Source of the DNA: Escherichia coli
GTDB lineage: Bacteria; Pseudomonadota; Gammaproteobacteria; Enterobacterales; Enterobacteriaceae
Length of the DNA: 64,000 bases
NCBI RefSeq assembly: GCF_044647545.1
Contig: NZ_CP172818.1
Direction: 5' to 3' (one strand)
The position numbers are program-made. Shown here piece by piece: positions 6,352 through 12,300 of the stretch; within the stretch, counting starts at the first letter, position 1; each line of letters opens with the position of its first letter.

Positions 6352-9300
6352 TCACCGGTGGTCAGCATCGATTCCATCTGGAGGATAAAGTGCGGGAATG
6401 TTTCATCCAGCTTCCGGCATTCGATGTCACTGAACTTGCCGGTGATGCTGGCCCGGTCAGCCAGATAATGCAGTCGGTTGCCTTCCTGCACCAGACGGGC
6501 TCCCAGGCGCAGTGTAATCTCCCGCTGCAGGCCCCTGGTAGGGTTGCTCATTACAGTTCTCCACTATTGTCAGTTCAGGGTGATGCTCATCAGGCAGGTA
6601 TAGGGCCCATTGCGGTCCTGGCGGCGTTCGGCGTATACCGCGAGGACTCCGGCGATATCCGGAACGTCCCTGCCGGTGTAATGACAGACGCTACCGTGCC
6701 ACTGGTATTTGCCGGTGCAGTAGCGAAAGATTCGGGACTCAGGATGCTGGCGGTATATCGTCATTGCCCTGCGTTTACTGATAATTTTCATGTAATACCT
6801 CAAAGCAGACCGTGTTCTGCGAACGAATAGATTTGCCTGCCACCGACAATCAGATGGTCAGGGACACGGATATCCACCAGCTGAAGCACCTGAACCAGTC
6901 GCTGCGTGAGGGTTTTGTCGGCCTGGCTAGGTGTCGTCTCGCCGGAAGGATGGTTATGCGCGAGTATCACCGCCGCCGCGTTGAAGTGCAGAGCACGTTT
7001 GACCACCTCCCGGGGATGCACCTCGGTGCGGTTAATCGTGCCGGTGAAGAGCGTTTCATGGGCAATCAACTGATTCTGGTTGTCCAGATACAACACCCGG
7101 AACTCTTCCCGCTCAAGCGCGGCCATATGCAGTCGCAGCCATTCACGTACGGCGTGGGTAGAGGTGAAGGCTACGCCGGGCTCATGCAGGTGGCGGTCCA
7201 GAGCCCTGAGCGCCCGCTGAATGAGACGCCGGTCCTGTGGCGTCATCTCGCCGGGTAAAAAGGAAAGCTGTTTCATCTGTTGCTCCTTCGGTCAGTCGAT
7301 AATACGCAGAATGGCGTGAGCCTCTGGATGTTGCATGGCATACTCCCGCAGGCGGTAATAGTGTGCGGTCATCGCGTCACATTCTGTACGGCAGGCATGG
7401 TGGCTATACGCAATCAGGCAGACAGCAATACCTGCTGCTTCTGCACTCATTTGGGCATCGTTACCGTTCAGGCAGTTAAACAGACGCCATGTCTCATCGT
7501 TGTCAGGCTCGGGGGACATAAATGCGCCGCCATTGCTGAGGGTGTAGAACGACCAGATACCACCGCTGTAGCCCTCACAGAAGCGGTCCATCCAGGCGAA
7601 GATATGCGGCTCCAGGAGTAGCCACTGCGGGATAGCGCCAAAGTACTGTGGCCAGAAATCGATACGCTGTTCATCGGGGACCGGCGTGACGGTCAGTTCA
7701 AATTCGGGTTGGTTAGCGGGTGCGAGGTCGTGCTGCGTCTGTGTTGTCATGGGTATGTCTCCGTCAATAAAAACGCCAGCGGCGATGGCTGGCGTATGGG
7801 GATATAAAGTGTGTTCGGGGAGGTGAATGCGGGTAAATGCTTCGCGATCAGCGGGTGGCCGTGTCTGTACGGATGCCTGAGGTGCGGATATAGCGGTTAA
7901 GACCTTCACCGGCATCCGGCTCAAAGTTCCATGCCCGCCAGACCATCCGGCCTTCAGTATCACGAACCACCAGACGGAAGTGACTGCCCTGGTCGTCTTC
8001 GAGTGTGATATTGCTGTACGTGGTAGTGACCGCTTGCGCTTGTCTCCGGGTGAAAGGCCCCGGTGGCAGCAACACGGATTGGGTCATTTTCGGGCTCCTG
8101 ATAAAAGAAAACCCCGGCAGCCTGCTAGCTGTCGGGGTGAATTTGCTGGGGAAGATACTACTATCAGTCGTTGCTGCAGTCTCCGAGAGTGGACAGAACT
8201 TTCTCAGCGTTCTTCCGGTCCGCAGTGAAGGTCCCTGCTTTGTGGTCATTGACGTAGACGTCGAACTGCCCGGCCTCAGAGATATTGCTGATGAAGTCAA
8301 ACCAGGCGTTATCGCCGTTACGCCAGCCCAGGCTGGACGGAATAATGTACTGCTGGTGATCCATCACTACGGTGATAGTAGTGTCGTCATCGTGCGAACT
8401 GACCATCTTGTCATCGGCAAGGGTAAGAAAGACTGAATGCTGATAGAAACCATTCTGGTCCGGGTTCCCTGTGCAGTTGATGGTAAACGTCTTTCCGCTG
8501 GCTTCGGTCACGCTGTATTCCGTATTGCCCTGACCGTAACCCTGCTGCCAGAACCCCGGGATAGCAGAGGCATTAAAGCTCGCGAGCAGTACACCCGCCA
8601 GCATAAACCGACTTAGTGAAAGTATTGTCATTCTTGTCTCCTTTGTCGTTGTTTTATTCCTGATTGTCAGGGTTCGAGGGTATCAGTAGCTGCCCCATCA
8701 GTTTGCCGTCATGGGCGTACTCAAAGTATTTTTCTTTGGTATACGGGTCCGTCACCTCCTGGTATTCCAGTTTGATGTTATCGGCAATACACAGCGCATT
8801 CATCAGTGGCTGGACGGTTTTTTCCTGCATATCCACGAGGTAGTAGTAACTGCCATCCTCGCAGCCATCGGGCGACTGGCGGGTACGTAAAACCTGCAAG
8901 GTGGGACCGGATAAGTAGTCAACCTGTGACCATTCTTCGCTGACATCATCCTGGTGGCTGACCACATCACTGAAACGCGGTGGGGTGAGGTCCTTAAATT
9001 TACTGATGGCCTTCAGGTCATCACTTCTGTCATCGCATGCGATGAGAAACAGAGTGGTGGCAACCAGCGCCAGCAGAGGCAGTGTTTTACGTTTCATTAT
9101 TTTTTTCCTGAAATCAGACGAACCACTTTGGCAAAGACATAAATGCCCACGAAAATACCCACCGGCACGCCGACGAACGGTGTCAGCGCGACACTGGCAG
9201 CACCGGCTGCGCCACCTCCCGTCAGCAGTGCGGCAACAGTGGCAAGGGTCAGGGCCGCGAGACTGTCGGACACCCCGGTTTTGTTCAGAATGATGACGAT

Positions 9301-12300
9301 GACAACAATGGCGATAATGGCAATATCCGGACTGATACTCCAGGTCCAGATACATCAGCCGCTCACGAAAATCACGCCGCAGCGTGCGCACCGACACACC
9401 AAACTCAGCGGCAAGCTTACGCACACTCAGCGTTTCCCCTGCCACCAGACGGCTGATTATCAGTGACAGCCTGACAGCCAGCCGGTCATGGCGGCGTTCT
9501 GCCTGTGTCATGAGACGTTCTCCGTGAAAGTTAACTGACTGAAAATGATGTGATTACTTTAAAGAGGGGGTCGGACAGGGTATGGACACCACAGAAACTA
9601 TTTTTCATTTCTGCAAAAGCCAGAGGCAGCGGGGGTTACAGGCCTTCCCTCGGTGAGTGAGGACCGTCAGCACGGTGCGATGCGGACAGGTGGTGTCCGA
9701 TATTAACAAAGCAGCAACATTAAACGGTCACTGCAGTTGCGTGAGCAGGGCTTCCGCCATCACCCACAGTGCCCGGTTAAGTTTCACGTCCCCGTCGATA
9801 CCGCGAACGGCACGGGTATGTGACCGTCCTCCTTTGGCATTACGGCCACTGAGCCCGCCCTTAATCAGGTTCTCCTGAATACGCTGGTACGTGGTCCACA
9901 GGTCATTGCTCTCATCCTGCCAGCGGCGAGGGGAGAGGATCTGCGATTCAGTCACCGGCTGGTGGTCTTCACCAAAGCGGTATGTGAGGGCGGCTTTTGC
10001 CAGTGCCTGCTGTGCCGGGGGTGGCAACAGCAACGACTGCATGGCATCCCGTTTCTCCTCCACCCGGTCAAAAATCCCCAGCACCTCATACGCGCCTTCA
10101 ATCACCTGACTCACCACGTCCCCCTTGTGTGGCACCCGCACCTCGCCAAACGACTCACCGCAGACGAGCCCGTTCTGACAAACCGCACGAAATAGTCCCG
10201 GCAACATCTGATACGAACTGGTTCCATCGTGAGAGTTGAGTAGAATAATTTCCGGCACCTGTTTACCGGTGATCTGCCCTTCCCGCCGCAGACGCAGCAT
10301 ATGCTTTGTATGTTCACGACGACCCGGGTCACGCACGCGGGTCTGACAGGCAAAGAATGGCTGGAAGCCTTCTCGCTGTAGGCTGTCGAGCAGGGAGATG
10401 GTGGGTATATAGGTATAACGCTCACTACGGGACTCGTGTTTGTCCTCACTGAATACACTGGGCACTACGCGAAACAGCTCTTCACGGGTTAACGGACGGT
10501 CGCGACGGATAAGGTTTGCTGCGCCAAAGCGCGAAGCCAGACGGGTCATAAGCAGACTCCTCATAACGGGAAAACAAATAAAAGGGATCCCCGTCGCATC
10601 GGCGACAGGGGCAGGGAAGTAACAGGGATGGGTTAAATACTCAGAAGAAGAAATCCCAGACGGCGCGGGCCACTGACACCACCGTGGTGCGCACGGCCTG
10701 AATGACGGCCCGCACCGGGGCGGGTATCAGGGGAAAGGCACTGATGCTATCGAGTACGGCCCCGACGGTTTCACCAAAATCGCTACGAGCCTGTTCCCGG
10801 ACTACCGTCGTGCGAAAGGAAGGATGGAGTTGCGACACCACCGGGCTGGTGGCCTCACGTGGCAGGCACTTAATCATCCGCTCGGCCATCACCTTAAGCC
10901 CCCATTGTAGACGGACCGACACAGCACACACCGGATGGACGGGCTGGAACAGCTCATGCAGCAGGCAGATTTTGCGGCTGATATTCTGCTTCTGCGCCGT
11001 GGACAACTGTCCCCCACCGCTGGTAGGTTCGGCCTTATCCGACTGGCTGATAACAAACAGCACCTTATGCCGGTATACCTCTCCAATCACCTGATGATAA
11101 AAATGTTCATCCACCGTCAGCGCCCGGTCATCGGCCTTAATCAGCCACAGTACCAGGTCGAGGCGAGGAAGCTGTTCGCGGTACAGCGCAGCATACTCGG
11201 TATCGCGAGCGCCACTTTCGCCCACGCCGGGCAGATCCATCAGCGTTATATAGCGGTCGCCGACTTGCAGGCGAAAGCGCAGTGGCTCACGTGTACAGGC
11301 CGCCACATCGCTGACCGGTGATATATCTCCGGCAAACAGGGCATTGCACAGACTGCTCTTCCCAACACCGGTTTTACCCATAATGCCGATCACTGGCTCG
11401 TAGTTAGTTAACTGGTTAATTTGCTGCAGAAGCCGCTCTGATACCCATTGCGGCAGATCAGCAAGCGATTGCTGAAACGACTTCAAACCTTCAGAATTAT
11501 TCATCACTACTCCTCTGAAAAATAATAAAAAACGGTAGAATCGTGAGATTCCGCCGTTAATTGCGTATGTTCAGAGTGATGATATATATCTGAAGATTTT
11601 TTCAATCCTCTGCGCTTGAGGCAGCTGCGCGACTGCTGGCTCAGGCAATGAATGAGTTATAATAGCAGCATTTACTAACAGGGATTTATTGAGAGTATGA
11701 GCCGCCGTGATACACCTTAAAATCTCAACCCAGCAAAGTTTCGGAGCCGCGAGCAAAAGTGAGAGCCTTCACAAAATAATGCTTAGTAATAAAGTTACTT
11801 TGAATTCAGAGCCCCGATTAATGTGAACATGATCAACGAATTTTACCCAGATTGAGTTCATTCAGTAGCCAGGTTTTGAACACATCAAGCGCAGAATGCA
11901 TGTGTTGGTGCTGGGGGAAAACCAAATAATGACCGATGTAATGTATTTCGCTGGTACTGTTTACAAGTGGGCATACCAGTTTACCGCTAGCGATTTCACG
12001 TTCAGCCAGTAGTTTTGATTCAAGCACAACTCCCAAGCCGTCAACTGCGGCAGCAATCGCCATAAAGCTACGGTCAAATCGAAGGCCATAATTATTGGGT
12101 GGCGTCATCTTATTCGCCTCAAACCATCCTTTCCACTGGTACAACTGCACATCGCACTGAATCAATGTCAACGCATAGAGATCCTCTGGTTTCTTTAGCC
12201 GCTCAGCCAGTTGGGGAGAACACAGTGGCGTAAGTTCTTCAACAGCAAGCGGGATCTTCTCATAGGGTGATGGGCGGGGTTCACCGTAGACTATATCGAG

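Follow-up and report, generated by a model that had tools for sequence, protein, structure and literature searches.

The composite reading frame that leads into yafY in the CP4-6 cryptic prophage of E. coli K-12 is almost certainly the scar of one 564-bp deletion, which fused the 5' part of a regulator gene to the body of ypjK, minus its start. The stretch analyzed here, referred to as the window, is 64,000 nucleotides of an E. coli contig (NZ_CP172818.1), and the features concerned are collected in Table 1. The same DNA, with no difference, is carried in the K-12 reference as ykfK and ykfL, between yafY and yafZ. That these two are pseudogenes was already known from the reference annotation, and the locus is in that sense an ordinary one. 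What is added here is the detail of the event: the exact size of the deletion (564 bp), the 7-bp microhomology at its ends and the intact allele that natural isolates still carry.

Table 1. Features at the CP4-6 locus, in window coordinates
Feature	Position	Strand	Description
Composite ORF	8654-9511	minus	285 codons; ykfK stub, then off-frame ypjK, then yafY (ORF listing)
yafY (b0251)	8654-9097	minus	Intact 147-aa lipoprotein; Pfam YfjS_YafY, 215 bits
ykfL (b4627) pseudogene	9097-9318	minus	ypjK codons 4-78 plus stop; NC_000913.3 annotation (266553-266774)
Cys/His/Arg-rich read-through	9098-9319	minus	74 codons, residues 65-138 of the 285-aa ORF; +2 frame of the ypjK body
Deletion junction	9319-9325	both	Single remaining 7-bp repeat, GGCAATA on the plus strand, TATTGCC on the coding strand
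ykfK (b4628) pseudogene	9320-9511	minus	Codons 1-64 of a 233-aa YfjR-like HTH-WYL regulator; NC_000913.3 annotation (266776-266967)
yafZ-ykfK intergenic region	9512-9727	minus	Presumed operon control region

The junction and the intact allele

The intact locus of MB52 encodes a 233-aa HTH-WYL regulator (YfjR-like), followed by a 40-bp spacer, the 78-aa membrane protein YpjK and yafY. Taking exactly 564 bp out of this locus yields the K-12 sequence, with flanks of 726 and 432 bases that are 100% identical. Aligned to L001, K-12 is identical on the left up to 9325 and on the right from 9319 onward, which gives a 7-bp overlap and a deletion of 564 bp. Intact CP4-6-type alleles carry TATTGCC twice, once in the yfjR-like gene (nt 187) and once at nt 751 from the regulator ATG, corresponding to nt 9-15 of ypjK; the repeat was present at both ends in MB52, L005 and L006 and as one copy in K-12. 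With repeats at both ends, one of them kept and no other change, the comparison of K-12 with the intact alleles shows the pattern of a microhomology-mediated (slipped-strand) deletion.

An ancestral operon of the MB52 layout, continuing from yafY into ykfB, almost certainly underwent a single event between the TATTGCC copies at regulator codons 63-65 and ypjK codons 3-5. The 7-bp microhomology would fit slippage during replication or illegitimate recombination independent of RecA. The event took regulator codons 65-233, with the stop codon and the WYL sensor domain, the spacer with the ribosome-binding site of ypjK, and the start of that gene; it left behind a 64-codon HTH stub with its native Shine-Dalgarno (SD) sequence and ATG, a start-less ypjK body and an intact yafY. 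Intact alleles carry a stop codon after the regulator. The 564 bp correspond to 188 codons, and the regulator and yafY share a frame; because the deletion is in frame and the yafY frame is free of stops across ypjK, the regulator frame runs into yafY. The 74 codons in the middle would then be meaningless off-frame sequence.

This reconstruction changes part of the original prediction, in which the region was described as overlapping remnants of at least two decayed genes rather than one protein. The remnants of two genes agree with the reference pseudogenes ykfK and ykfL. They are not decayed, however, as both are 100% identical to the intact allele, pointing to one clean deletion; nor do they overlap, as the genes abut at the 7-bp junction. 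The sole overlap is one of reading frames, the body of ypjK being read off-frame as part of the composite ORF.

A different origin, whether gradual decay through several mutations, an IS-mediated deletion or an assembly artefact, might be entertained for a cryptic prophage with further pseudogenes and IS elements nearby, and MB52 does have a transposase inserted between ykfF and ykfB. We assign such origins next to no probability. Over 1151 bp of flanking sequence K-12 and the intact allele agree at 100%, without a further lesion or an IS remnant, and the identical junction recurs in 318 independently assembled genomes, findings that together refute all three.

What the remnants encode

Translation of the composite ORF showed that its C-terminal portion is the YafY lipoprotein. 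Over 9097-9511 on the minus strand, frame 1 gives an HTH-like string and then Cys/His/Arg-rich residues, while the next frame over gives a hydrophobic peptide. All the elements originally described are thus present, including the 285-codon length. The extent of the Cys/His/Arg-rich part, put at about 90 codons, needs correction: the segment exists, but the first 16 codons after RRDF are genuine regulator sequence and only 74 are off-frame.

The ykfK stub keeps, as read from the sequence, its native ATG at 9511-9509 and the SD motif GGAG at 9523-9520 with 8-nt spacing, and all 64 of its 64 residues are identical to the intact MB52 regulator. PGAP describes the CDS as 'DeoR family transcriptional regulator, incomplete, missing C-terminus'. 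In keeping with the DeoR/HTH relationship suggested earlier, Pfam HTH_DeoR (PF08220) matches residues 14-50 of the K-12 ORF at 25.8 bits (cutoff 21), and the intact MB52 protein matches likewise. The intact allele has in addition a WYL domain (PF13280; aa 131-187, 25.1 bits, cutoff 21.8), and its regulator matches a PADLOC WYL model full-length (aa 10-225, E 6.5e-32). PADLOC WYL models are linked to CRISPR-Cas and defence signalling, and in WYL regulators dimerisation and signal sensing usually depend on the WYL domain and the C-terminal part. The Pfam WYL match is absent from the K-12 ORF, where only the HTH is kept. The likeness to the PADLOC models and to HTH-WYL regulators, an N-terminal DeoR-type HTH plus WYL, therefore belongs to the intact ancestral protein, whereas the K-12 stub has the HTH alone: ykfK is a truncated remnant of an HTH-WYL regulator of the YfjR type and not a member.

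The second remnant, ykfL, is without the ypjK ATG, codons 1-3, SD and 40-bp spacer. Its 75 residues (4-78) are 100% identical to the MB52 YpjK (WP_001144031.1); it does not amount to a full-length YpjK, and its position upstream of yafY is preserved. The first canonical in-frame start is the GTG at 9273, giving 58 aa without the first hydrophobic helix. PGAP begins the gene at 9336, at an ATC, which is non-canonical, and so obtains a 79-aa 'YpjK', in conflict with the pseudogene call of the reference, and the deletion scar accounts for this disagreement over whether the ypjK remnant is a gene. Could ykfL still work, producing an altered or N-terminally shortened YpjK from one of these two starts? 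The annotation of an intact 'protein YpjK' in K-12 assemblies, the deposition of the 58-aa ORF as a hypothetical protein and the 75 of 78 codons left unchanged would all favour it. Nevertheless we consider it very unlikely: the deletion removed the native ATG, the SD and the spacer, the ATC is a very poor initiator whose only SD-like GGAG lies 1 nt upstream, the GTG has only a GGG directly abutting it and its product loses that first helix, and the curated reference lists a pseudogene.

The hydrophobic peptide had been likened to the small membrane stress proteins GlsB/YmgE. It is actually YpjK, which resembles GlsB/YeaQ/YmgE in being small (about 80 aa), Gly/Ala-rich and hydrophobic and differs in having no detectable sequence relationship to them. 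Two YpjK alleles gave no match to PF04226 (Transgly_assoc) at E<=10, the control YmgE scoring 53.1 bits, and BLASTP of YpjK against YmgE returned E=10. A sub-threshold similarity of the YpjK C-terminus to VraH (NCBIfam; 26 bits, cutoff 40, 23 residues) is treated as compositional. No family for YpjK was found in either PADLOC or PHROGs.

The Cys/His/Arg-rich segment (15 Arg, 10 Cys and 7 His) is ypjK in its +2 frame and no protein domain, and it has no Pfam match. Across four alleles the ypjK frame has a dN/dS of 0.06-0.10, and the read-through frame shows 0-1 synonymous versus 3-17 nonsynonymous differences between alleles. The +2 frame, which is that of yafY, is open across ypjK in all four intact alleles examined. 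This is unremarkable: when YpjK was recoded synonymously with the codon usage of this window, 14% of the resampled sequences had no stop in that frame either. An overlapping gene in the open +2 frame is ruled out by the substitution pattern and this chance expectation.

The functional product at the locus is the 147-aa YafY lipoprotein, from its own start. It has its own SD, AGGA at 9109-9106, and its ATG overlaps the ypjK stop (TAATG). The protein clears the YfjS_YafY (PF20494) cutoff of 27 bits by a wide margin, and its N-terminus carries the lipobox L-I-A-C. YafY is a Cpx/DegP-inducing lipoprotein. Published work places it in the inner membrane (PMC6538781). The only PHROGs matches of YafY and YkfB were to families of unknown function, and a PADLOC and PHROGs scan of YpjK, YafY and YkfB yielded no defence-system assignment.

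The CP4-57 paralogue and the upstream region

K-12 does have an intact paralogue of this operon, yfjR-ypjK-yfjS-yfjT of CP4-57, at about 90% DNA identity to the locus. Gene order, the 40-bp spacer, the TAATG overlap and the upstream palindromes are shared; the CP4-57 copy differs in that every gene is intact and in having no TATTGCC at nt 187 of its yfjR, and the same slippage would therefore be impossible there.

In the presumed control region, a conserved palindrome, CGGACA-N5-TGTCCG, lies at 9683-9699 and a direct pair, TGTCCA-N5-TGTCCG, at 9572-9588. Both are invariant in four alleles, the CP4-57 paralogue included, and may form a putative operator. A promoter scan of the minus strand found no sigma-70-like promoter upstream of ykfK. 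A terminator-like hairpin was found right after yafZ (9734-9711); the scan as a whole is uninformative on expression of the stub. An Rfam scan of window positions 8000-10700 on both strands returned no RNA family at E<=1, ruling out a known structured RNA or riboswitch at the locus. The 9-mer TCGGACACC at 9266-9274 is paired with 9692-9700; short repeats inside the region are at chance level, with ~1 such 9-mer pair expected in 711 bp. A literature search for ykfK/ykfL, b4627/b4628 and ykfBK brought up no study of these pseudogenes and one mention of a 'ykfBK operon', to whose transcripts an RNA-seq work refers (PMC5389530).

With the start and SD of ykfK still in place, translation of the stub or of the 285-aa chimera may occur. 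Such a product could bind the CGGACA-N5-TGTCCG sites, which the yfjR operon of CP4-57 also has, or could alter yafY expression as ribosomes run through the yafY start. The retained GGAG, spacing and ATG, the intact HTH_DeoR match, the invariance of the palindromes between CP4-6 and CP4-57 alleles and the reported 'ykfBK operon' transcripts are all compatible with this idea, which we nonetheless think unlikely. The stub has lost the WYL domain and C-terminal part, the junction falls in the predicted wing of the HTH (GYCRL becoming GYCHY), there is no promoter-like site upstream by our scan, and full-length K-12 YfjR itself gave no ChIP-exo peaks (PMC8464067). We infer instead that the HTH stub left by the deletion is without function. 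Still less probable is the more specific proposal that a translated chimera or stub still binds operators well enough to cross-talk with the sites of the yfjR operon in CP4-57; if it were true, two prophage-island modules would be regulated differently in K-12 and in wild E. coli.

Distribution and significance

A junction-specific 41-mer, which spans the junction and cannot seed on intact alleles, matched 318 genomes among 5426 complete ones of E. coli. The 60 matches sampled were K-12-type laboratory strains, genomes of K-12 size or F' plasmids, all looking like K-12 lineage or an F' derived from it, and about 220 further genomes have the two-piece intact arrangement. The 285-codon ORF is thus restricted to the K-12 deletion allele. 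In practical terms, the junction 41-mer is a convenient marker for K-12-derived DNA, F' episomes included.

These data bear directly on whether the ORF might be a real single gene, a fusion of HTH, linker and lipoprotein. It is uninterrupted, with a good SD and ATG, and the exact 285-aa sequence is deposited for 477 contigs under names of the kind 'predicted DNA-binding transcriptional regulator YafY'. However, it is not conserved as one protein, which is in line with the original view: outside the K-12 lineage the yfjR-like gene, ypjK and yafY are separate, with a stop after the regulator. In the 90%-identity protein cluster, of which 40 of 900 members were read, the 15 members listed included a single extended form, that of 285 aa, the others being mostly 147 aa. 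The middle segment evolves as off-frame ypjK, with changes that are almost all nonsynonymous, and the lipoprotein signal peptide and lipobox would sit internally in a 285-aa chimera. The single-gene reading is scarcely credible on this evidence and is effectively refuted. The composite ORF would rather be a by-product of the deletion than an evolved protein, its read-through presumably without function, and the scar accounts for the spurious 'transcriptional regulator YafY' of 285 aa that gene callers repeatedly report for K-12 genomes.

Many wild isolates have CP4-6 copies of YpjK and the HTH-WYL regulator that K-12 is missing. This loss is relevant to any K-12-based study of YafY or of the poorly characterised yfjR-ypjK-yfjS-yfjT module.

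Annotation of the composite reading frame

An ORF listing of the window returned a 285-aa ORF on the minus strand whose first 48 residues contain an HTH-like string, whose centre is Cys/His/Arg-rich and whose final 147 residues translate as the YafY lipoprotein; a hydrophobic peptide occupies a neighbouring frame of the same strand and terminates one base into the yafY ATG. All three elements named in the original prediction, the HTH-like N-terminus, the Cys/His/Arg-rich middle and the other-frame hydrophobic peptide, were recovered by this listing and translation. Megablast against complete E. 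coli genomes showed that K-12 strains match window positions 8600-9750 at 100% in one piece, with yafY, 'ypjK', an incomplete 'DeoR family transcriptional regulator', ykfB and yafZ annotated beneath the match. The reference NC_000913.3 (K-12 coordinate = window coordinate + 257,456) places the stretch in the cryptic prophage CP4-6, between yafY (b0251) and yafZ (b0252), and carries the two parts as pseudogenes ykfK and ykfL; the finding is therefore already annotated. The view that the region holds two gene remnants, not one protein, is borne out by these reference entries and by 100% identity of the stub to residues 1-64 of the intact regulator and of the membrane peptide to YpjK residues 4-78.

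Automated annotation conflicts with the reference, in that PGAP calls an intact 79-aa 'protein YpjK' from a non-canonical ATC where NC_000913.3 has pseudogene ykfL. This call was seen in the K-12 assemblies examined, and all sampled K-12 records bore the label 'ypjK: protein YpjK' beneath the match. Public protein collections contain the exact 285-aa sequence on 477 contigs, under names including 'predicted DNA-binding transcriptional regulator YafY' and 'transcriptional regulator protein-like protein'. Most of the other proteins listed in its 90% cluster are the 147-aa lipoprotein. The deposited 285-aa protein is an annotation artefact of the scar. A 58-aa GTG-started ypjK fragment is grouped at 90% identity with proteins that are mostly 233-aa WYL regulators, the cluster representative included; this grouping is probably an artefact of ORFs that were fused or mis-called across yfjR-ypjK in certain assemblies.

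Features of the ykfK-ykfL region and its surroundings
Feature	Window position	Strand	NC_000913.3	Remark
Composite ORF	8654-9511	minus		285 codons
FliA (sigma-28) motif	8777-8804	minus		inside yafY
yafY start	9095-9097	minus
ypjK stop	9097-9099	minus
Seven A's	9100-9106	minus
ykfL (b4627)		 	266553-266774	pseudogene, reference annotation
PGAP 'protein YpjK'	9097-9336	minus		79 aa, ATC at 9336
First in-frame ATG/GTG/TTG of ypjK body	9273	minus		GTG
Shared 7-base run	9319-9325	plus		GGCAATA
ykfK (b4628)			266776-266967	pseudogene, reference annotation
Direct pair	9572-9588	minus		TGTCCA-N5-TGTCCG
Palindrome	9683-9699	minus		CGGACA-N5-TGTCCG
Terminator-like hairpin	9711-9734	minus		T-rich tail
ykfA	10641-11507	minus		GTPase

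Origin and distribution of the junction

In strain MB52 and many more natural isolates the query also aligns at 100% identity, though split into two pieces that span 1715 bp, against 1151 bp in K-12. Annotated in these genomes, each of them intact, are a 233-aa yfjR-like regulator gene, a 78-aa ypjK and the gene for the lipoprotein. Base-by-base comparison found K-12 and MB52 identical over 726 bases from the left and 432 from the right, with exactly 564 extra bases in MB52; the two identical runs share seven bases. On the coding strand this TATTGCC occurs at nt 187-193 of the regulator gene (codons 63-65) and again at nt 751-757 from the regulator ATG, which is nt 9-15 of ypjK. Both copies are present in three CP4-6-type alleles, the paralogous CP4-57 copy having only the second position. 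The comparison showed no IS remnant and no second lesion. Such a pattern is the classic mark of one microhomology-mediated deletion, the origin of the scar and specific to the K-12 lineage. Lost with it were codons 65-233 of the regulator, the 40-bp spacer and ypjK codons 1-3. The term 'decayed' does not fit one 564-bp deletion with flanks identical to MB52.

The deletion amounts to 188 codons, the regulator and yafY share one frame in the intact allele, and the yafY frame is open backward through ypjK and the spacer to the regulator stop, for 239 codons in three alleles and 268 in the fourth. In-frame loss of the regulator stop therefore yields the 285-codon fusion.

Distribution was followed with a 41-mer centred on the junction; each intact flank offers 24 continuous matching bases, too few for the 28-base word of megablast, which keeps intact alleles from seeding a hit. 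The junction was found in 318 of 5426 complete genomes (322 records including 7 plasmids, all at 100% identity). All 60 evenly sampled rows were K-12-type strains, K-12-sized genomes or F' episomes of NEB / TG1 strains, among them MG1655, W3110, DH1, DH10B, C600, MC4100, BW25113, TOP10 and NCM3722. Given this confinement, and the undeleted two-piece arrangement in about 220 further genomes, the deletion appears to have occurred once, and recently, on the K-12 lineage. MB52, which has the undeleted ancestral allele, also has a DDE transposase gene between ykfF and ykfB (784-1917 of L001, its intact locus) that is absent in K-12.

Coding frame and protein families

The Cys/His/Arg-rich stretch comprises 74 residues (R15, C10, H7) and is the +2 frame of the Gly/Ala/Val/Ile-rich ypjK. 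When YpjK was resampled synonymously, weighted by the codon usage of the window, the +2 frame was likewise stop-free in 14% of resamplings and the +1 frame in 0%; the open +2 frame is thus unremarkable. Across four alleles dN/dS was 0.06-0.10 in the ypjK frame, compared with 0.07-0.15 for the regulator and 0.06-0.21 for the lipoprotein, while the same differences read in the read-through frame gave 0-1 synonymous versus 3-17 nonsynonymous changes. This substitution pattern settles the coding frame as that of ypjK, not the read-through.

The K-12 ORF scores above the Pfam thresholds for HTH_DeoR (25.8 bits versus 21, aa 14-50) and YfjS_YafY (213 bits). The intact regulator additionally carries a WYL domain (25.1 bits versus 21.8) and, across aa 10-225, matches a PADLOC WYL model (E 6.5e-32); the ykfK stub is without the sensor domain. 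YpjK has no family in Pfam, PHROGs or PADLOC and only sub-threshold NCBIfam similarity to VraH. Its whole length is hydrophobic, most strongly at residues 1-19 and about 48-71 (Kyte-Doolittle, 19-residue window). A GlsB/YmgE-like identity had been proposed for it, and was rejected: two YpjK alleles gave nothing against PF04226 at E<=10, where the positive control, K-12 YmgE, scored 53.1 bits, and BLASTP of YpjK against YmgE returned E=10. The original interpretation thus stands as to two remnants and is wrong in detail as to 'GlsB/YmgE-like', 'decayed' and 'overlapping'. Further along the window, the YkfA GTPase has weak PADLOC matches, confined to its N-terminal region, to the dynamin-like GTPase models LeoBC (E 1e-7) and LeoA (E 1e-3).

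Regulation and residual translation

The yafZ-ykfK intergenic region contains a perfect palindrome, CGGACA-N5-TGTCCG, followed some 100 bp downstream by the direct pair TGTCCA-N5-TGTCCG. Both are unchanged in the four alleles, including the ~90%-identical CP4-57 paralogue, and are candidate operators for a YfjR-type HTH-WYL regulator. A terminator-like hairpin overlapping the yafZ stop codon suggests that ykfK-yafY-ykfB would be transcribed apart from ykfA-yafZ. Neither a sigma-70 consensus promoter downstream of this hairpin nor a sigma-70-like site upstream of ykfK on the minus strand was detected, and no Rfam family matched in 8000-10700 at E<=1. Inside yafY the sequence agrees exactly with the published FliA motif GATGAATGCGCTGTGTATTGCCGATAAC, and a FliA promoter within yafY drives ykfB (PMC4183435). 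Overproduction of YafY, an inner-membrane lipoprotein, activates Cpx (PMC6538781). ChIP-exo yielded no peaks for K-12 YfjR (PMC8464067). For yfjR no promoter is predicted, yet biofilm array data show its expression (PMC9308461), and ypjK and yfjS are still in the y-ome (PMC11551758). No work on ykfK or ykfL was found in the literature.

The ypjK stop overlaps the yafY start as TAATG, directly after seven A's. This arrangement suggests that, in intact alleles, translation of the lipoprotein is coupled to that of the small membrane protein, a link that K-12 would have lost. There the ypjK body is left without a canonical start or usable Shine-Dalgarno sequence, and its first in-frame ATG/GTG/TTG, a GTG adjoined only by GGG, would give 58 aa without the first helix. 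The ykfK start retains a GGAG and yafY an AGGA Shine-Dalgarno sequence, each at 8-nt spacing. The feature is the known ykfK/ykfL pseudogene pair; were it transcribed, ribosomes could begin at the stub and continue into yafY.
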